From Torpedo marmorata (Eukaryota): a stretch of DNA of 64,000 bases. The position numbers were made by a program, and so were the translations under genes. The stretch spans positions 84,630,001-84,694,000 of the forward strand of contig OZ360228.1 in the NCBI GenBank assembly GCA_977017645.1, in the 5' to 3' direction. Below are positions 451 through 62,068 of this stretch, piece after piece. Position 1 is the stretch's first letter, and every line of letters starts with the position of its first letter. Under the pieces are notes generated by a model. It saw only the letters and a list, made by a program, of their open reading frames with translations. It made no database searches and had not been told where the DNA came from.

Positions 451-761
451 CATTCATGGGCTTGCAGCAAGATCCAAGTGCCTGGGAAAAACGAGAACAG
501 AGCAGTGGCCAAAGTCCATGGTGGCGAGGATGATGGAGATGGTGAACACTGAAGATGTTGATAACACAGCTTTGCATAGAGGGACCTGAGGCAGAAAGGT
601 ACATCCTCTGGGAATTTTCACTGCTGGGCATAGGCGTATCTAGGGTATGGCAGCTTTGGCGTGTGCCCTGGGCGCCACTTGAAGGGGGGCACCACTGAGC
701 AGTTCTTCTGGTCCCGGCCACCTCCAGCCGCACGCACGGCAGGGGGCCTCCAAATGACTGC

Positions 762-1083
762 GGCCGGCCGAGCTGGGAGCTGAGTCAAAACTGCCGCTGT
801 CCCGGGGAGCAGCCAGGCGGGGAGGCGGCACTCAGGAAGCCGGACTACGCCGTCTTCAAGCTCAAGTACTTTATGTGTCTGCTGGTGGGCGTCACCTCCG
901 GAGTCTGGATCTGGTCGGGCAAGACGCTGGAGTCGTGGAGGGCCTTCTGCACTCGCTGTTGCTGGAGCAGCAAGGGGACAGGCGGCTCCACGTACAGCGA
1001 CACCAGCACCGGTTTGACCTGGAGATCAGGCACGACCAGCTCTATGTCTTACCCGAAGCAAAGTGCCGTTATCCCAAGTCTAA
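762..1083 (+). pseudogene. FZD8: Frizzled-8 3' fragment (ECL3, TM7, KTxxxW tail), 5'-truncated and frameshifted
   Basis: GRPSWELSQNCRC...KPDYAVFKLKYFMCLLVGVTSGVWIWSGKTLESWRAFCTRCCW...YSDTSTGLTWRSGTTSSMSYPKQ; removing one base at 1062-1063 restores (M/V)PLSQV-TAA, the FZD8 C-terminus. Confidence 0.92.
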
Positions 1084-1680
1084 CATCTCGACCAGACTTT
1101 CAACATCCACCCCCCCCCCACCAACCGAAGATTCGCGTCCAGCATCTTTATTAACATGTTAATGAACTTCTAATGGTATCCATTAGTCAGAAGTGAAGGA
1201 CTGACCAGAGCAATGTACCTGGCACTAATACTTCTAAATCTTAAAACAATTTGATATGCACAGGACAGCCACCAAATGTTAAATGTGGGAGGAAGAGAGA
1301 TTGCGTTGTGCACAAGAACAGGAACTTTTTAAACCTATCAGGAGTGTGTTTTCTGCTCATGCAATCCTCTTAATTGCTGGCATCTGCTAAAGTAACTTAA
1401 AACAGAGGGAAAAAAATGGCAAACGACATATCTTAACATTGGATGCATCAACTGGCCTTAAAATCGTGAATTTTTAAATATCCCATGTTATACGGGGTTC
1501 TTGCAAAAATCATATTTATATAATTATTTGTACTATGAACACAACTTGTAAATTGTGTACATAACAAATGTGTTTTTGAAGTATATACAGAGTATGTAAA
1601 TTTTTGTATTAAAAAAGTTTTGTGGTTGCTTCAGCCAGAGCAACAAATATTTGAAGCAATTATTCTATTTTGACAATAAA
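1084..1680 (+). other. Probable fzd8-derived 3'UTR
   Basis: AT-rich sequence after the restored stop, with TGTA motifs, ATTAAA (1608) and AATAAA (1675); no poly(A) tract follows. Confidence 0.6.
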
Positions 1681-2903
1681 ACAACTTTTGAATTGATCAC
1701 GTTTGCGAACACTCTCGGGGCTCTCATTTCTGCAGGAATCCTGTACGTTTTACTTGCGGGCAGCATGTCGAGGGATGTTGGTTTAGGAGAAAAACTATTT
1801 TGGTAATTGTTGAACTTTTTACCTGGCTGCCCAATAGCTGAGTACATAATTTCTTAAATGAGGGCCAATTCAATAGGGTTAGTCTGTGGGAGTGAGCCTT
1901 TTGAATCAAATAACTTTGATGTCCCATTTCCAAGCTTGAAGTACTCCCCCCACAACCACCATCTCTCTCTATCTCCCCCCCACCTTGGTTTGCAAGGCCA
2001 CCGGTCAACGTGCTGCCTGAAAATTAATTAAAAGAGCCATTTAGAGACTTAACTCGTTTAAACGGGGATACGAATTGTAACAGTTAGTGAGCATGAAGGA
2101 AAAGTAGAACAGTCTTTTAAACAGCTTTTTCTGTATTGTTGATCAGACTGCAAGCAGTAAGGCAGAGGCTCGGACATATAGAAATCCCCATGAATGCCCT
2201 ACAGGTGGTCCAGCTCACATAATCCCCCAATTTAAGGCGCTCTCCTTAGCAAGACAATTGCATTAGAAAGCCCTCTCTTTTTTGCTCCTAATTGAAGTGA
2301 TGGACAAGTATTATAGACTACAAGTTGTAAAAAAAAAAACTCCATGGCGATTGTCTGCACTATAGTGGCAAGGAGATAAACGGAATGGCAGCGTTGTTCA
2401 GGGAAGTGTATGCTCCTCATAAAAGGCCATTTTATTCCTTTAAGCAGTTTTGGCTGACATAAAAAGAAACTATGCCCAATACACATGCGGCCGGTCTTCA
2501 AAACTAGCCCAATTGTGCATGGAAATCGCCCAACTGGCAACTTTATTTGCGATTTTTTAATTGGGGGGGGGCGCAATTTCAGTGCTTGCCATAGGCGCTA
2601 TTTTACCTTGATACGCCACTGCTGCTGGGCTCTCCGACAGGAGTCCTGTTAGTTTTAGACCTGCAGTTGTGGTCAATGGTATTCAGTCACAGTAAAAATG
2701 ATAAAACACCAATAACCCATCTGATGTTACAAATGTGGTTCACACACTCTGGGCTGGGACCCAACATTCTGTTACACTTACAGACGGTAGACTAGTGATG
2801 GAATTTCACTCTCATATTCTGTAATATAGGGAGATACATTTTCCATTAACCGTGTACCTTGATTTACTTTAGGTACACAGTACATTGCTGACGGTAGACT
2901 CAC

Positions 2904-2995
2904 CTGTGGTAATGAATCTATGCTCTGACCATAAAGTCGCACTACTGTTTCTGAAGAACTAGATGTTGAAGAACTCAGTTCACGCACAATCAATC
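2904..2995 (-). CDS. FRMD6: FRMD6 coding exon 12 (penultimate; terminal exon outside window)
   Basis: (G)LIVRELSSSTSSSSETVVRLYGQSIDSLPQ; cag acceptor, GTGAGT donor; 92 nt. Confidence 0.94.
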
Positions 2996-3404: not shown

Positions 3405-4240
3405 GTCTTCCATGCGACAATCTCTGTACATTCTATTAAAATCTACAAATTTGCTGATGACACCACAATTGTTGGCCAAATAACAGGTAAAAATGAGTCA
3501 GAATGCAGGATGGAGATAGAGGATCAGTTGTATGGTGCCAGGACAACAATCTCGCCCTCAACATCAGCAAGACCGAGGATCTTATTGTGAACATTAGGAA
3601 GGGGAAGCTGCGGGACCATGCACTGTCCTCATTGGCAGGAACAACGTGAAGAGGGTTAGTAGCTTCAAGTTCCTGGGAATCCACACATCGTAGGACCTCT
3701 CCTGGAGCCAGCACATCGAGGCAATTGTGAAGGCAGCACATCAACACCACTACTTTCTAAGAGGTCTAAGGAGATTTGGCATGTTGTTGAATACCCTACC
3801 ATACACCTTCTGGTGCATTGTGGGAAGTATACTGATTGGTTTCATCACAGCCTGGTTTGGAAATTCAGGAAAGCAGTCAACATTATAAAGAAACCCTGTC
3901 ACCCTGGTCACAATCTCTTCTTGCTGCTAACTTCAGATGAGGGTACAGAGTCTGAAGTCCAGCATCTCCAGGTTCAAGAACAGTTTTGTTTCAATCAGGT
4001 GCCTGAACCTCCTCGTACTGCCCTAACCATAACACTACTCTAGCACCACCAAAGTTCTCTCTGCATTATTGAAACAGCACCATTTTCTGCACTCTGCAAC
4101 TGTGAATATTTATATATCCTTTTATATTTATTATAATTTTTCTCTCATGGTGCATTATGTTAATTTAATTTCTATCTATTGTTTATTAATGTGTTTTATG
4201 GGCCTGTGTAGCTGCAGCAATCAAGTATATTGCATTGTTA
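3405..4240 (+). mobile_element. Rex1/Babar-type LINE, decayed 3' fragment
   Basis: IYKFADDTTIVGQI motif plus downstream RT C-terminal remnants with frameshifts. Confidence 0.8.
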
Positions 4241-11663: not shown

Positions 11664-12161
<498 letters not shown>

Positions 12162-20302: not shown

Positions 20303-21275
20303 CTCAGATTTCAGATTTATTGTCAGAGTACATACATGACATCACATACAACCCCGAAATTCCTTTTTCCTGCGGGCGCACAGAATTACCATTAATTGGT
20401 GGTGCAAAAATAAACTGTATACAGCGTAAACATGTAAACAAATAAAAGAACTGTAAACAGATAATGAATGTAAACAAACTGACTGTGCAATACAGAGAGA
20501 ACAAAAAAAAAATCAATAAAATGCACAAGAGTCCTTAAATGAGTCTCTGATTGGGTTTGTCGTTGAGGAGTCTGATGGTAGAGGGGTAGCAGCTGTTCCT
20601 GAACCTGGTGGTGCGAGTCTTGTGGTATCTATACCTCTTTCCTGATGGCAGCAGCGAGAACAGAGCATGTGCTGGGTGGTATGGGTCTTTGATGATTGCT
20701 GCTGCCCTCCGACAGCAGTGTTCCCTGTAGATGTACTCAATAGTGGGGAGGGTTTTGCCTGTGATGTCCTGGGCTGTGTCCACTACTTTTTGGAGGGCTT
20801 TACGCTCAGGGGTATTGGTGTTCCCATACCAGACCGTGATGCAGCCGGTCAGCACACTTTCCACCACACATCTGTAGAAATTTGCCAAGGTTTCTGGTGT
20901 CATACCAAACCTCCGCAAACTCCTGAGGAAGTAGAGGCGCTGATGTGCTTTCTTCACGATGCCATTGGTGTGTTGGGTCCAGGAAAGATCCTCCGAGATA
21001 GTGACTCCCAAGAACTTAAATGTACTCACCCTCTCCACCTCTGATCCCCCAATGATCACTGGATTGTATACCTCTGGCTTTCCTTTCCTGAAGTCAACAA
21101 TCAGCTCCTTAGTTTTGGTGACATTTAGTGCAAGGTTGTTGTTGGTGCACCATTCAGCCAAGTTTTCAATCTCCATCCTGTATGCTGACTCATCCCCTTC
21201 CTTTATACAACCAACTACCATGGTATCGTCGGCAAATTTGTAGATGGTGTTATTGTCGTACCGAGCTACAGAGTC
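20303..21275 (-). mobile_element. Rex1/Babar-type LINE, 5'-truncated, open RT C-terminal frame
   Basis: ORF 20535-21350: IYKFADDT...NNLALNVTKTKELIVDFR...RFRNSCYPSTIRLLN; 3' tail tgacaataaatctgaaatctga. Confidence 0.9.
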
Positions 21276-21295
21276 CAATGGGTACAGGAAAGTCC

Positions 21296-21978
21296 AGAGG
21301 ACCTTTCCTGGACCCATCATACTAATGTCATCGTGAAGAAAGCACATCAATGCCTCTACTTCCTCAGGAGTTTGCGGAGGTTTGGTATGTTACCGGAAAC
21401 CTTGGCAAACCTCTACAGATGTGTAGTGGAAAGGGTGCTGACCAGCTGCATCACTGCCTAGTATGGGGGAACCAATACCTCTGAGTGGAAAGCCCTGCAA
21501 AAGGTAATGGACACAGCCCAGTACATCACAGGTAAAATTCTCCCCACCATTGAGAAAATCCAAATGGAATGCTGCCGTTGGAGAGCAGCAGCAATCATCA
21601 AGGATCCACAGCACCCAGGTCGTGTTCTGTTCCCGCTGTTAACATCAGGACAGGGGTACAGGTGCGACAAGACTTGTACTACTAGGTTCAGGAACAGATG
21701 CTGCCCTCCACCATTGGACTTCTACACAACAGACTTAATCAGAGACTCATTTAAGGACTCTTACTTTGCACATTATTTATTACTGAATATTTATTTTTCT
21801 GTATTGCAGTTTGTTTACATTTCTTCCTTTGTTTACATTTCTCTCTTTGGTATACATATCTTTCTTCTCGAGTACAGTCTACAGTTACCGATAAGTAGAA
21901 ATTCTGATTGGCCGATAGGATAAATCTCAGGGATGTACGTGATGTCATGTATGTACTCTGACAATAAGTTTGAATTTT
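21296..21978 (+). mobile_element. Rex1/Babar-type LINE, second 5'-truncated copy, opposite orientation
   Basis: EDLSWTHHTNVIVKKAHQ...AAAIIKDPQHPG; same type of 3' tail. Confidence 0.88.
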
Positions 21979-22044
21979 GGTGCTTGCTCTTCTGCTGCAT
22001 GAGAGTCTTGAGCTCTGACAAAGCACCAAATCAGAGACTGTATT

Positions 22045-23340
22045 TTGATCAATGCTTAATAACAAGAGGGAAAAATTCTCCTATTTTTAGGCACTTGCTA
22101 GAAATATGGAATAGAGTGGATAGAGAAATAGGAGCGAAAGGATCAATTTCTCGAAGAATGCCTCTATATCAAAATGAACTTATTCCATTTACTGTTGATA
22201 ATCAACTATTTAAAATTTGGTACCAAAAGGGAATTAAGGAAATAAATGATTGTTTTGAAGCTGGTAAATTTATTACGTTTCAGAGAATGAAAGATAAATT
22301 TAGTATAGCAAATAATACAATCTTTGCTTACTATCAAATTAGAGCGTTTTTAGGGGAAAGGTTGGGCCGCGGTTTGATCTTACCAAGACAGACTGAATTG
22401 GAATTATTAGTTACTAATGGAGGTGTGCCTAAATTTATTTCTCAAATGTACAGATTGTTACAGAGGAAACTTCCTAAAACAGGAATTCATAAATCAAGAT
22501 TAAATTGGGAAAAAGATTTGAATATAACAATAGATGAAGAACACTGGAAAAAATTATGTAAACAAAGTATGACGAAGATTATTAATGTTAGATATAGATT
22601 GGTGCAATATAATTTTTTTCATCAACTATATTTAACACCTAAAAGACTAAAGAAATTTAATCCGACATTATCTGGTTTATGTTTTAGATGTAATAAAGAG
22701 GAAGGTTCTTTTGTACATTCTACATGGTTTTGTCCAAAAGTTTATGATTTTTGGTTGAAAGTTAAAAATTTTTTAGATAAAGTATTAGGAACTACACTTC
22801 CAATGGATCCTATGATATTTTTGTTTGGAGATATTGAAGGAACCAGTGTTGGAGTGAAATTGAATATGTACCAGACGGAGTTTTTGCGTGTTGCTTTGGC
22901 CGTTTCTAAGAAATGTATTGCCACTACATGGAAGTCTGATGTAGATTTGGGGTTGGAAAGATGGCACGCAGAATTGCGTTCTTGCATACCACTCGAAAAA
23001 ATTACATATAATTTACGTGATAAGTATCATTTCTTTTTGGAAGTATGGAGCCCATATATAAAAATTGTGGGTTTAAGGATTTGAAGATCTCTGGACATCG
23101 GGTCTGGCTGGCGAGCCTATCCTCCACAATAAGATCAGTTTATAGTTGTTCTTTTTAGATTGACATTCTCCTTACTCTATCCTTTTCTTCTTCTTTCTTT
23201 CTTTTCGGGAGGGTTAGGGAGGGGAGGGTGGGAGGGAGGGGGGGGTGAAAATGTATCACATGTAATTTGAGAAATTTGCGTTTTAAACTGTGTATTGTGT
23301 GATTTAAAAATTTTAAATAAAATATTTTTTTTAAAAAAAG
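22045..23340 (+). mobile_element. L1-clade LINE, 5'-truncated, open ORF2 C-terminus
   Basis: Uninterrupted frame to 23084 with CFRC...HSTWFCP zinc motif and IPLEKITY; 3'UTR with AATAAA and A-run. Confidence 0.88.
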
Positions 23341-26941: not shown

Positions 26942-29900
26942 TATTTCAATATTTTTATTGATTTTATCAAATAAATGATACATAGGTACATGACAATAAA
27001 ATAAAGTATTAACAAATCTTGTATAACAATACAAATAATGTTGAAACCTATGTTACATTAAAAGGAAAAATAAAAATAAAACCACTATACTAATTTCTAA
27101 ATATCGATCTCCTACCTTCGGAGGCTACCGGCTTAACACAAACAATCCACTACTAATAATAAAAAAAAGGGGAAGGTAAACATTGGGTTCAAAAACCAGA
27201 AACTAATTGATCTTACAAATTTTGAAAGTAATTAAGAAAAGAACCCCATAAAGAAACAAAATTAAGATTCATATCAATAGTGGAACATCGAATTTTTTCC
27301 AAAGTCAGACATGTCATCATATCGGACAACCATTGATTATGAGTGGGAGGGACAGCATCTTTCCATCTCATTAAAATGGCCCTTCTTGCGATAAGGGAGG
27401 CGAGGGCAACTTCATGGGATTGTGAAGCAGTCAAAATTAAACCAGTTGGCCCACTTATTCCAAAGAGAGCAATAAAAGGATTTGGAGTCAAAGTAATATT
27501 AAGAACTAAAGACAAGGTACGAAATACTCCTTTCCAAAAATTGGAAAGAGAAGGACATAACCAAAACATATGATACAATGTACCTTCTTCAGTTATACAT
27601 TTGTCACATTTAGAAGAGAGATTAGAATAAAATTTAGCTAATTGAACTTTGGAATAGTGGGCTCGGTGCACTACCTTAAATTGTAATAATGAGTGTCGAG
27701 CACAAAGAGAGGATGAATGCACTCGCTTCAAAATAGAATTCCATGTAGTTTCAGAAAATAACTGTTGAAAATCTTGTTCCCATAGCTTTTTAATTCTGTC
27801 CAGGAAACTATCCCCAGAATTTAAAAGTAATTCATAAAGGCCAGATACCACCCCTTTGTAATTAGGTTGAAAATGATAAATCATCCCTATCATATTAGGT
27901 TCCAGGTCTTCAGGGAGCTTCAAAATTAAAGAATTCAAAAAGCTCCTAACCTGTAAATAGAAAAAAAAAAGATGTCTTGGTATTGTAAATTTGGTGGATA
28001 ATTGTTCAAAAGAGGCAAGATTTTGATCAGAAAAAATATCTAAAAAGGATTGGATACCTAAATTTAACCAATGATGATAACCGCTATCTTGAACCGAAGG
28101 TTAAAAAAAAAGGAATTACCTAAAATAGGACTAATTAATAAGAATCTATGGTACCCAAAATGTTTCCTAAATTGAAACCAGATTCTCAATGTATATCTAA
28201 CGACAAAATTGTCAGTTAATTTGGAGGCCGAAAAAGGTAAAGGTGCTCCAAGTATCGAAAGAGGAGAATACTTTTTAGTAGATTTAATTTCTAAATTAAT
28301 CCAACTTGAAGCACCTAAATTTTCCTTGTGATGAATCCAAAAAACAATGTATCTAATATTAGCTGCCCAATAATAAAACCTGAAGTTGGGTAATGCCAAA
28401 CCCCCATTCTTTTTAATATTTTGAAGGAAGACTTTTCTAAGACGGGGGCATTTATTTTTCCATATAAAAGAAGATATGATGGAATCTAATGAATCAAAAA
28501 AGGATTTAGGAATAAAAACAGGTACAGCTTGAAAAATGTATAAAAATTTAGGAAGAATATTCATCTCAATGATATTGACGTGTCCAATTAATGTCATCGA
28601 AAGAGGGGACCACTGTGTCAAGGACTTTTTGACATGACTCATTAAAGTAAAAAAGTTTTCTTTGAACAGGTTATTGAATTTCTTGGTAATAGTAATACCT
28701 AGATAGTTGAACTGATTTTTAGTTATTTTAAAAGGAATAGAGGAATCTAAAGAACAGGAAGAACCCAAAACGAACAGCTCACTCTTCTGCAAATTCAATT
28801 TATATCCTGAAAATTTCCCGAATTGATAAAGAAGTGATAAAATAGATGGAATTGTCCGGTCAGGATTCGATATATACAACAAAAGGTTATCTGCATAAAG
28901 AGACACTTTATGAACATTTCCTGCTCTTCTGATTCCTGAAATATCAGCCAATTGCCGAAAAGCCACTGCTAAAGGTTCTAAAGCCAAATTAAATAATAAT
29001 GGGCTTAAAGGACATCCCTGTCTAGTTCCACGATACAACTTAAAAGGTTTGGATTTAATTGAATTAGTAAAAATTGAAGCTGTAGGAGATAAATATATCA
29101 GTTTAATCCAATTTATAAATTGGGGACCAAAATTAAATTTCTCTAATACACTGAATAAATATTCCCATTCAACTCTATCAAAAGATTTTTCGGCATCAAA
29201 AGAAATAATACATTCAGAGGACGAAACTGTAGGAGAATAAAGAATGTTTAACAACCGACGGATATTAAATTGTAAGTAACGTCCCTTAATAAACCCAGTT
29301 TGATCCTCAGAAATGACTAAAGGTATAATATTCTTTAACCTATGAGCTAAAATCTTAGACAGTATCTTAGTATCAATATTTAATAGAGAAATTGGTCGGT
29401 AGGAGGAACAGTCTAATGGGTCCTTATTCTTTTTAGCAATAAGAGAGATTGAGGCTTCATAAAAAGTTTCTGGCAACTTCCCACTTACTGAGTAAAGACA
29501 GAGTCCAAATGGGGTATCAATAAATGGGAAAATGATTTATAAAACTCCGCTGGGAAGCCGTCAGGATCAGGGACCTTGCCAGACTGCAAAGAGTTAATAG
29601 CTGCTGCAATCTCCTGCTCAGAGATAGGCTGTTCCAACTTTAATTTATTCTCTGAAGAAACTGTAGGAGTAGTCAAACCATCCAGAAATTGCTGTAAAGA
29701 ATTTCAGTCTTTGATCGAGTCAGAACTATACAATTTAGAATAAAACCGAGAAAAGGTGTCATTAATTTCAACATGATCATTAGTCATCTTACCATCGTCT
29801 CTACAAATCTCATTAATAAGCCGTTTATCTGTGTAATTTTTAATTTGGCTAGCTAAAAGTTTTCCTGCCTTTTCACCATGAACATAATACTTAGATTTAC

Positions 29901-31145
29901 TCTTTAAAAGTTGTGTTTGTACAGGATAAGTAAGAAGCAAGTCATGTTTAGTTTTAAGTTCAACCCTTCTTTTAAAAAGCTCAGGTTTCGGAGTTAAGGC
30001 ACATTGTTGGTCAATACACTTCAACTGATTAGCCAAATCATCTTTCTCAGAATTAGCTTTCTTTTTTAACGTTAGCCATAAATGAAATTATTTGACCTCT
30101 GATGTAAGCTTTAAAAGTATCCCAAATTACTAAAATGGAAAACTCCGGCGAGGAGATTTTACTAAAAAAAAGGCAATTTGATCTTTCATAAATTTCAAAA
30201 AATCAGGGTCTGACAGTAAAAGGGTATTCAACCGCCATTGTTTAGTAATTCTAGGTAAATCTGGGACATTAATGGACAAAATCACTGGAGAGTGGTCAGA
30301 AATTAATATGCTTTCGTAAGAACAAAAGTCAACAGAAGAAATTAATTGTTGGTCCATAAGAAAGTAATCAATACGAGAATATGTATGGTGGACATTAGAA
30401 AAAAAAAAGAGTATCATCAGGATGAAGAAATCTCCATACATCAATAACCCCAGATTGTAACATAAAATAATTTATATATAGCTAACTTATTTAAATTAAC
30501 GATTTTATGAGACGAGCGGTCGAGTATTGGATCAAGCCAACAGTTTAAGTCGCCGCCTACTATCAAAGAATACATATTCAAATCCGGTAAAAGAGAAAAG
30601 AGGCGTTCAAAAAAATTCAGGTCATCAGTATTAGGACCATAAATGTTAACAAAAACGTAAAGTTTATTATATAGTTTACTAGACAATATAAGAAAACGAC
30701 CATTAGTATCGGCGATAACCTCATGTTTAATAAACGGCACTGATTGCTCGATCAAGATTGAAGCTCCCCTAGATTTAGCCAAAAAAGCTGAGTGGAATTG
30801 CTGTCCCTTCCAAAAATTCAAAAATCGCGAGGTATCAGATAGACGAAGATGTGTTTCTTGTAGAAGAATAATCTCAGGTTTAAACTTTTTAATGTGAGAA
30901 AAAACCTTTCGGCGTTTAACCGGATGGTTCAATCCCGCAATATTCCACGACATAACTTTAATACTTGTGGCCATCTGAGAAATTAGAAGTCAATAATACA
31001 AAATTATTAAAAGTGACAGCATGCCCAGTAAAGAATAGCCAATATAGCCTCTCACGTAGCAGCAGCTTGCAGTCAAAACAATGCCCCCAAAACTCACTGC
31101 TGGCAGTTATCCCAGAATATACATACAAGATACAACAGCTCACCA
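26942..31145 (-). mobile_element. L1-clade LINE, complete but disrupted ORF2, no ORF1
   Basis: APE (SWNIAGLN, LQETHL, SDH), RT (YRPISLLN, GTRQGCPLSP, YADN) and CCHC in frameshifted segments; 13-bp TSD CAGGCAAC(C/T)GTTC at 26929-26941 and 31146-31158. Confidence 0.92.
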
Positions 31146-35033: not shown

Positions 35034-35268
35034 NNNNNNNNNNNNNNNNNNNNNNNNNNNNNNNNNNNNNNNNNNNNNNNNNNNNNNNNNNNNNNNNNNN
35101 NNNNNNNNNNNNNNNNNNNNNNNNNNNNNNNNNNNNNNNNNNNNNNNNNNNNNNNNNNNNNNNNNNNNNNNNNNNNNNNNNNNNNNNNNNNNNNNNNNNN
35201 NNNNNNNNNNNNNNNNNNNNNNNNNNNNNNNNNNNNNNNNNNNNNNNNNNNNNNNNNNNNNNNNNNNN
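35034..35268. other. Assembly gap
   Basis: Run of 235 N. Confidence 1.
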
Positions 35269-37236: not shown

Positions 37237-37876
37237 TAGCAGGTCCTCACTTAACATTGTTGATACGTTCTTGGAAAGTGCTACTTTAAGTGAAACTGCA
37301 TTAAACGAAACCAATTTTACCNNNNNNNNNNNNNNNNNNNNNNNNNNNNNNNNNNNNNNNNNNNNNNNNNNNNNNNNNNNNNNNNNNNNNNNNNNNNNNN
37401 NNNNNNNNNNNNNNNNNNNNNNNNNNNNNNNNNNNNNNNNNNNNNNNNNNNNNNNNNNNNNNNNNNNNNNNNNNNNNNNNNNNNNNNNNNNNNNNNNNNN
37501 NNNNNNNAATCAGCGGCGACGGTGGACATAGTGGTGGTGGCTGGTATGGGGAGGGAGGCTACTGGGATCCCGCAGTGGTCATCATCACTCAAGGGCAGAG
37601 AATCAGCTTGGTCATCATCATCACAGAAGTAATGTTGCAGAATGAGTGTTGCAAGAAATTCCTGAGGGACCTGGTGTTGCCATTGTGTGGGAGAGAAGCA
37701 CAGAAACAGCTGTGATGGGAGAGCGAGCAGGTGCGAGAAGAACGGCCACCTTCAGGTCTCACGGAGGTCATGGTTCTGTGGTCTGCTGCATACCGGTTCA
37801 GTTCAAACCCAAACAATAACAAAGTGTGGCGCTGCATTCTATTTATTTATTGCCTCATCAACGTTATAACGAAACG
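37237..37876 (-). mobile_element. TcMar-Tigger (MER6-like) deletion derivative spanning a gap
   Basis: TA + tagcaggtcctcacttaac...aacgaaaccaattttacc; other subterminal ctcatcaacgttataacgaaacg; both resemble recalled MER6 ends. Confidence 0.65.
37322..37507. other. Assembly gap
   Basis: Run of 186 N. Confidence 1.
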
Positions 37877-38677: not shown

Positions 38678-39218
38678 CCATATATGCTGGCATACAAGAC
38701 AAATTGTGTATAAGATGACCCCTAAATTTCCACCTAAAATGTAGGTTTTGAGCTATACTTGCTGCATAAGACTACCCCAAGTCTTACTGCCCCAATAGTC
38801 CATTACCAACCATCCCACTGATCAGTGGAGTGATGCTGTCAAAATTTTATTAGCATATATTAAAATAAACCACTGTCGGCTCCTTTAACAGGTTGTTTGA
38901 AGCCTGTACAGAGCTGATGGCAGTTGGACTGGGCGGATGGACCCCGCAGGGGAGCGCTGAGACTTCGCTGTTAAGGTTCATATTTTATACTTGGCGCGGG
39001 GGAGAGCAGAGACTTAGCCGTTAAGTTTCGTATTTTATACTTGGCGCGGGGGAGCGCTGAGACTTCGCTGTTAAGGTTTGGATTTTATACTTGGCGCGGG
39101 GGAGCGCTGAGACTTCGCTGTTAAGGTTCGGATTTTACACTTGGCGTATAAAATGACCCCTGGTTTTGGGGTGATATTTTTAAGATTCAAATATCGTCTT
39201 CTACGCCGACATAGACGG
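38678..39218. mobile_element. Tc1/mariner-superfamily (pogo/Tc2-like) MITE inserted in the SINE tail
   Basis: TA on both sides; TIRs CCATATATGCTGGCATACAAGAC / CCGTCTATGTCGGCGTAGAAGAC. Confidence 0.8.
38949..39146 (+). repeat. Tandem repeat, four copies of a ~49-50 bp unit inside the MITE
   Basis: Unit ggggagcgctgagacttcgctgttaaggttc.tattttatacttggcgc. Confidence 0.9.
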
Positions 39219-55373: not shown

Positions 55374-55613
55374 GGTAAATGTAAAGGTAAAGATTCCATT
55401 ATTGTCACGTAATACTACATTTAGAATGTAACATACATGAAATTCTTTAATTTTTGTCTACCGTAAGGCAGACAGAGGGTCGCTACTTTGTCCAGCGCCC
55501 CTCACAGAAACCTACAGCACCTGGTGTTCCTTGGCGGTCTCCCCTCCAAGTACTGACCAGTCCTGTGGCTGCTTAGCTTCCGAGATCAGACAATCCCAGT
55601 CGTATTCAGGCTA
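55374..55613 (-). mobile_element. 5S rRNA-derived SINE (SINE3 type)
   Basis: Minus strand 55612-55508 reads gtctgatctcggaagctaagcag...tggtcagtacttggaggggagaccgcc..ggaacaccaggtgctgtagg (5S-like), then ~130 bp body and tail. Confidence 0.85.
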
Positions 55614-55899
55614 TGAGGTGCTGTAAGTTCACAGAACCCTCAGTTGTGACCCAGTGCAGCCACTGACAGCACATTCGAATGACCCTTTGACTCACTATGG
55701 TCAGATTGCAATGAGGCCTCTGCATGATGACTCACCCTTACACCCTGTTACCCATTTCAACCACAGGCTGCCATGGACACACCTCTTTAAAAGGACTGAT
55801 GCTGCCTGTCTAGAAAGCAGCTGCAACCTGTGGAATGTGAAGGATGGGCTTTATTTCTCTTCGAGGGGAGCAACCATGATAACACTTTCTTAAAGCATA

Positions 55900-61877: not shown

Positions 61878-62068
61878 TTCACATTTTAATTGACCGTGCA
61901 TCATGGAATCTTCTGGTTTTCCTAAGGATATACATGCCTTGAATTTTCAATGTTTTAAAAATGGTTCCTTTTTCACATTTTAATTGACCGTGCATCATGG
62001 AATCTTCTGGTTTTCCTAAGGATATACATGCCTTGAATTTTCAATGTTTTAAAAATGGTTCCTTTTTC
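61878..62068 (+). repeat. Perfect tandem duplication, period 94 bp
   Basis: ttcacattttaattgaccgtg...aaaaatggttcctttt appears twice with no visible difference. Confidence 0.92.

Follow-up and report, generated by a model that had tools for sequence, protein, structure and literature searches.

The window analyzed here is a 64-kb stretch (64,000 nucleotides) of the genome of the ray Torpedo marmorata (contig OZ360228.1). Twelve tblastn segments trace FRMD6, which acts in the Hippo pathway, over the minus strand between 54347 and 2904. One of its coding exons (2904-2995, minus strand) ends at codon 520 of 615 and is followed by a GT donor at 2903, while the exon at 11679-11996 agrees at 98% with Hemitrygon, at 97% with Narcine and at 92-93% with skate and sharks. 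The element that is the subject of this analysis lies within the intron that follows codon 520, at a distance of 274 bp from the GT donor, and carries a piece of FZD8 as cargo in antisense orientation to FRMD6. The FRMD6 introns also contain LINE remains, namely endonuclease and reverse-transcriptase ORF pieces at 27213-30989 (minus strand) and a zf-RVT-bearing ORF at 21924-23084 (plus strand). A LINE reverse-transcriptase fragment at 20535-21389 (minus strand) scores also on Pfam ALKBH8_N and has similar sequence near 3450-3950 and 21189-21923. The assembly is scaffolded and has gaps at 35034-35268 and 37322-37507 (421 N in total), none of them within 32 kb of the element. A G-rich minisatellite with a 23-bp unit, ~18 copies and G-quadruplex-type runs occupies 41-460, 170 bp from the element, and may have caused replication forks to stall close to where the capture occurred.

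The element is framed by an exact 8-bp repeat, CTGCTGGG, whose two copies (621-628 and 2622-2629, with no strand assigned) are separated by 1993 bp and which is absent elsewhere on the plus strand of the 64-kb window. Inside this target-site duplication (TSD) are imperfect terminal inverted repeats (TIRs), CATAGGCGTATCTAGG at the left end (629-644, plus strand) and, when reverse-complemented, CAGTGGCGTATCAAGG at the right end (2606-2621, minus strand), which share an initial CA and agree in 13 of their 16 bases. As a blind signal across the window the ends carry modest weight: with 18 nt compared and at least 13 matches demanded, the window gave three matches where shuffles averaged 0.6, and at least one match appeared in half of the 60 shuffles; with 16 nt, a length picked post hoc, it gave two matches, compared with an average of 0.07 over 100 shuffles. 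When the TSD and TIRs were anchored around the FZD8 cargo, the frame was found in 0 of 3000 shuffles. The TSD and the inverted ends that enclose the cargo are thus a real frame, in agreement with an earlier note on this DNA that had claimed an 8-bp TSD with imperfect TIRs starting with CA.

We listed 38 frames of at least 30 aa in the element and compared five of the longest with Pfam, which returned Frizzled alone; the four longest frames outside FZD8 contained no transposase domain, and an Rfam scan of 500-2800 gave no match. The element lacks a transposase ORF and is therefore not classed as an autonomous hAT. Its ends are reminiscent of the Tip100 group of hATs. The 8-bp TSD and the short, imperfect TIRs are features of the hAT superfamily, whose TIRs measure 10-25 bp, and the element resembles non-autonomous hATs and MITEs in these features and in having no coding capacity (PMC3942097).

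The best-defined part of the cargo is an FZD8 coding fragment at 764-1083 (plus strand) that comprises the third extracellular loop, TM7, the KTLESW motif and the tail, with the stop codon at 1081-1083. Read in the frame that starts at 765, it aligns with the final part of Pfam Frizzled (E 3e-14). The cargo holds FZD8 codons ~489-593, of which tblastn homology covers codons 488/489-587, and this homology ceases ~135 bp inside the left end, with nothing upstream aligning. Among the best 120 of 215 longer proteins, the closest were the FZD8 proteins of Amblyraja (85%) and Hemitrygon (83%), with sharks next at ~75-78%. By tblastn, the protein agreement with the FZD8 of two other batoids was 83/97 and 85/98 residues, and a tree of 17 rows placed the fragment closest to two batoid FZD8, with no starred support for the grouping. 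These results uphold the earlier identification of the last loop, TM7, KTLESW and tail of FZD8, batoid FZD8 being the best among the listed matches, and place the stop in homology close to the ~130 bp from the left TIR that had been claimed. An origin from FZD5, the best PDB match, was considered and ruled out: no full-length FZD8 chain was among the 14 PDB matches, the larger protein search put FZD8 first among the listed matches and the tail fits FZD8. Horizontal transfer or contamination was ruled out as well, since the best matches were batoid for both the cargo and the host gene.

Past the stop codon the cargo continues as AT-rich, 3'UTR-like sequence (1084-1700, plus strand; ATTAAA occurs at 1608, AATAAA at 1675), which by its continuity with the coding fragment would be derived from FZD8. 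It extends ~800 bp beyond the AATAAA, and the part past this canonical poly(A) signal (1701-2485, plus strand), which gave no Rfam or Pfam match and no copy in the window, is presumably FZD8 downstream DNA or a longer UTR. FZD8 identity is established for 764-1083 only, out of a cargo of ~1.72 kb, a size within the 100-5000 bp of internal non-TE host sequence that defines Pack-TIRs. The cargo is without promoter, start or extracellular domain. It bears no poly(A) tail, its A-runs (at 1410 and 2329) being purely internal; together with the negative Pfam result for the longest frames, this confirms the absence of transposase and poly(A) noted before. A DNA-level origin is not provable by introns, because FZD8 is a gene with a single coding exon. 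We consider it likely that the cargo was copied from a DNA template rather than from RNA.

On either side of the cargo lie the arms of a putative non-autonomous hAT-type element, the left at 629-767 (plus strand, 139 bp, 66% GC, with FZD8 homology absent before ~764) and the right at 2486-2621 (plus strand, 136 bp). The motif GGCG/CGCC, which was drawn from the TIR core and selected after inspection, occurs four times in each arm (in the left arm, always in the first 72 bp) versus twice in 1402 bp of non-coding cargo. A 9-bp repeat, TGCGGCCGG, is found at both inner junctions: the first copy (759-767, plus strand) overlaps the start of FZD8 homology with its final four bases (CCGG), and the second (2486-2494, plus strand) marks the putative boundary between the cargo and the right arm, 136 bp from the right end. 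With both strands searched, these are the two only copies in the window. For 9-mers that span 764, a copy fell in the last 300 bp in 26 of 5000 shuffles and anywhere in 1084-2621 in 51 of 5000, and a looser shuffle test gave 110/5000 and 516/5000, p being about 0.005-0.1 depending on the test. The repeat at both junctions suggests that ~1.72 kb of cargo interrupts a hAT-type MITE of ~270 bp (~266). The CCGG would represent ~4 nt of microhomology with FZD8, given that the conserved Asn-Arg-Pro of FZD8 accounts for these shared bases at the left switch, provided that the Asn codon was AAC. The complementary ends, the single TSD, the common motifs and the junction repeat would fit two arms of one TIR element, and an origin of the arms from a hAT transposon is probable. 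The first reading of the segment was sound in its overall structure but had overlooked the 9-bp junction repeat, as well as a +1 frameshift and six replacements in the coding fragment. We also observed that 616-640, which spans the left flank, TSD and left terminus, resembles 2577-2601, an inner part of the right arm read in the same direction (21 identical columns among 25 aligned; the score was reached in 1 of 1000 shuffles), which might reflect a template switch accounting for the CATAGG/CAGTGG asymmetry of the ends, or chance.

The frameshift results from an extra base at 1062 and displaces the last six codons of the fragment. The replacements (H>Q, M>K, I>V, M>T, A>T and A>T) affect six codons that are conserved in nine chondrichthyan proteins, although part of them could belong to the host's own FZD8; a seventh flagged replacement, in the codon at 831, was discarded because it falls in a variable loop and stems from the alignment. 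Replacement-site divergence of the cargo amounts to 6 of ~179 sites, or 3.4% (95% interval 1.2-7.3%), and the fragment's end branch is 0.11 versus 0.028 and 0 for two intact batoid FZD8 genes. Judged at the protein level, the cargo has decayed since capture. A functional truncated protein was rejected as an interpretation: in the 699-1154 frame there is no in-frame ATG before 873, the Met-to-Lys change falls at a position invariant in 13 of 13 intact proteins and the frameshift deletes the PLSQV end.

The element had been described as young, on the grounds of its perfect TSD and retained CpGs. The ~3.4% replacement-site divergence and the frameshift contradict this, and the perfect TSD is no sign of youth, since an 8-bp pair has a survival probability of 0.58 at such a divergence and would be expected intact in 58% of cases. 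The retention of CpGs is clear in the coding piece (observed/expected 0.74) but modest in the non-coding cargo (0.45, a level that 22 of the 119 bins in the window also reach), compared with 0.29 for the remainder of the window. Replacement-sensitive CpG bases were changed in the fragment at 1 of 19 positions, which is somewhat low and is the strongest point for a young age. Using the epaulette-shark mutation rate of 7e-10 per generation (PMC10587355), the divergence dates to 48 million generations, or at least 8.7 million at the most favorable limits. As 48 million generations is implausible, either the shark rate is untransferable or some of the changes predate or accompanied the capture. 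The capture is not recent.

Self-BLAST of the element, arms, cargo and flanks within the 64-kb window revealed neither a further copy nor a paralogous empty site. No sister FZD8 fragment of >85% identity was found in the best 120 of 215 longer proteins, among 18 proteins of similar length or in the best 150 of 256 cluster representatives, tests that are weak because pseudogene fragments seldom enter protein sets. A 23-nt right-arm motif had 0 matches in the prokaryotic genomes scanned, a result of no weight for the ray element. The element is probably single-copy. Its earlier designation as a Pack-hAT is upheld insofar as a non-autonomous hAT-type element contains the 3' end of an FZD8 that stems from the lineage of the host, but travel of the element with its cargo is unsupported, and so is the multi-copy family that had been suggested. 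In Hemitrygon-named records FZD8 (a six-member cluster) is on a 181.7 Mb contig and FRMD6 on a 210.7 Mb contig, and the FZD8 donor is probably located on a chromosome other than that of FRMD6.

The interpretation that we favor, with moderate confidence, is that of a Pack-TIR made in place by template-switch gap repair in a resident element. A ~270-bp non-autonomous hAT-type element would have inserted, presumably by transposition, in the FRMD6 intron and created the 8-bp TSD, and a break or stalled fork would have arisen inside it. The broken end would have annealed to FZD8 via a few bases (CCGG) and switched template, and repair would have copied ~1.72 kb of FZD8, including the stop codon, the UTR and sequence beyond, until the copied strand rejoined the element and left the 9-bp duplication seen at the junctions. 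The cargo would then have decayed while being carried passively, antisense in the FRMD6 pre-mRNA. The resulting FZD8-bearing Pack-TIR is most likely non-functional. Our preference for capture in place comes from base rates: in the animal survey only 4 Pack-TIRs (1.4%) were multicopy, and an empty element was present at the orthologous site for 91 of 97 primate Pack-TIRs (PMC8277862). It is also favored by the TSD and inverted ends around the cargo, by the 9-bp repeat at both junctions, by the replacements, frameshift and long end branch of the fragment, by the batoid affinity of both cargo and FRMD6, by the lack of poly(A) and by the continuation of the cargo past AATAAA; a short TSD is found in at least 7 of 12 human distal poly(A)-less repair duplications in TEs (PMC2671141). 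Against it are the probable distal donor, a cargo that greatly exceeds the 224-bp median and begins with GC-rich sequence, and the weaker result for the junction repeat in the looser test (110 and 516 of 5000). In the animal survey, multicopy Pack-TIRs were linked to cargo that is distal, larger and rich in GC, and of five interchromosomal cases in frog three were multicopy (PMC8277862).

It is fairly unlikely that the capture took place elsewhere, for example near FZD8 through fork stalling and template switching, and that the loaded 2-kb element then transposed as part of a multicopy Pack-hAT family. The intact ends and TSD would agree with such a history, as would the probable distal donor and a long GC-rich cargo like that of multicopy frog cases, e.g. 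Pack-hAT-N8_XT (PMC8277862), and the single changed base among 19 CpG bases could indicate that the element has not been exposed to intronic methylation for long; had it jumped with its load, its arrival at the FRMD6 site could be later than the capture. The rarity of multicopy cases in the animal survey argues against it, as do the lack of a second copy in 64 kb and of any >85% match among the listed proteins, both weak tests.

An RNA-templated origin seems distinctly unlikely. In this scenario a 5'-truncated FZD8 cDNA from a long-UTR or read-through transcript would have entered a resident MITE through LINE machinery or served to patch a break, and TGCGGCCGG would be its TSD. The 5' truncation in mRNA orientation and the 9-bp flanking repeat fit this explanation, LINE-type reverse-transcriptase and endonuclease ORFs are present in the window, and the intron test is inapplicable to FZD8, a single-exon gene. 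Marks of retroposition accompany 17 of 29 human interchromosomal insertions in TEs (PMC2671141), and L1-type processed insertions (class 1 TSIPs) are likewise 5'-truncated, transcript-sense fragments with a flanking repeat of at least 5 bp (PMC5110952). Unlike class 1 TSIPs, however, the ray cargo is without poly(A), without an adjacent poly(A) signal (none lies 10-30 nt before 2486) and without a TTTT/A site, the junction site TGCGGCCGG being GC-rich (PMC5110952), and it extends ~800 bp past AATAAA.

It is very improbable that no transposon is involved and that a chance 8-bp repeat and inverted ends surround an FZD8 piece which arrived by ordinary insertion or was joined here by misassembly. 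In favor of this reading, the TIRs match at only 13 of 16 positions, the 18-nt window-wide test was not significant, the assembly contains gaps (35034-35268 and 37322-37507) and the left boundary resembles the interior of the right arm in direct orientation (1/1000 shuffles). Against it, the anchored frame was found in 0 of 3000 shuffles, GGCG/CGCC motifs are common to both arms, a live FZD8 joined by misassembly would lack the six replacements and the frameshift, and the nearest gap is >32 kb from the element.

Capture in place by gap repair agrees with what is known of such elements. A survey of 100 animal genomes found 370 Pack-TIRs, 208 of them hAT-associated, nearly all single-copy and mostly from gap repair in an already inserted element (PMC8277862); the earlier statement that gene capture is much less described in vertebrates therefore overstates the novelty. 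Like the hAT Pack-TIRs of Tan et al. (2021, PMC8277862), the ray element is a short hAT-type element split by 100-5000 bp of host sequence, with putative junction microhomology, exonic and UTR cargo and an intronic site; unlike them, it has a ray host and a cargo of ~1.72 kb compared with the survey median of 224 bp. Frog case 343 of the same survey is a hAT-N2A_XT with ~2 kb of interchromosomal cargo, and the elephant shark, the sole cartilaginous fish found in its species table, had 0 Pack-TIRs (PMC8277862). The repair-mediated duplications in TEs of Pace et al. (2009, PMC2671141) share host DNA in a resident TE, microhomology and the lack of poly(A) with the ray element and sometimes bear a short TSD, as it does, but they are mostly within 5 kb of the donor and up to 619 bp long, whereas the ray cargo is longer and probably interchromosomal.

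No report of an FZD8-bearing element or of Pack-TIRs in rays or cartilaginous fish was found in the literature searched, which consisted mostly of papers other than subscription ones. The terms fzd and frizzled are absent from the supplements of PMC8277862, but this absence is uninformative, as the examined part of its main table gives coordinates rather than gene names, and the main text of bioRxiv 10.1101/2025.06.08.657570 makes no mention of hAT or of DNA transposons. Transposons that carry genes have been described from many animals, and the ray element is a new example, not a new mechanism. It extends Pack-TIR gene capture to cartilaginous fish and has kept readable junctions, with a probable 4-nt microhomology and a 9-bp duplication, that bear on the two models proposed by Tan et al., capture in place and capture followed by transposition. 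In practice the element may also mislead, as its partial FZD8 match with UTR can draw annotation or reads wrongly to itself. Unless more copies or antisense RNA exist, a biological effect is unlikely. We regard as quite improbable a once-mobile ray Pack-hAT family that spread the FZD8 tail and 3'UTR widely, with antisense RNA from the FRMD6 copy that could tune FZD8. If this were true, the FRMD6 copy would add ~1.7 kb of FZD8-antisense sequence to a Hippo-pathway pre-mRNA, double-stranded or small RNA could form, and the multicopy family would be a rare vertebrate case with coding sequence of a developmental receptor.

The window contains other repeats. A 5S rRNA-like copy (Rfam RF00001, 43.7 bits) lies at 55509-55628 on the minus strand; the segment that includes it (55502-55636) is bracketed by an exact 8-bp repeat, TCACAGAA, its ends pair at 13 of 16 positions and it has no obvious tail, features consistent with a dispersed 5S pseudogene or a 5S-derived small element with a TSD. 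A 94-bp exact tandem duplication at 61878-62068 (two copies, 100% identical) could be an assembly artefact, and a 50-bp unit forms an array of four copies at 38945-39146.
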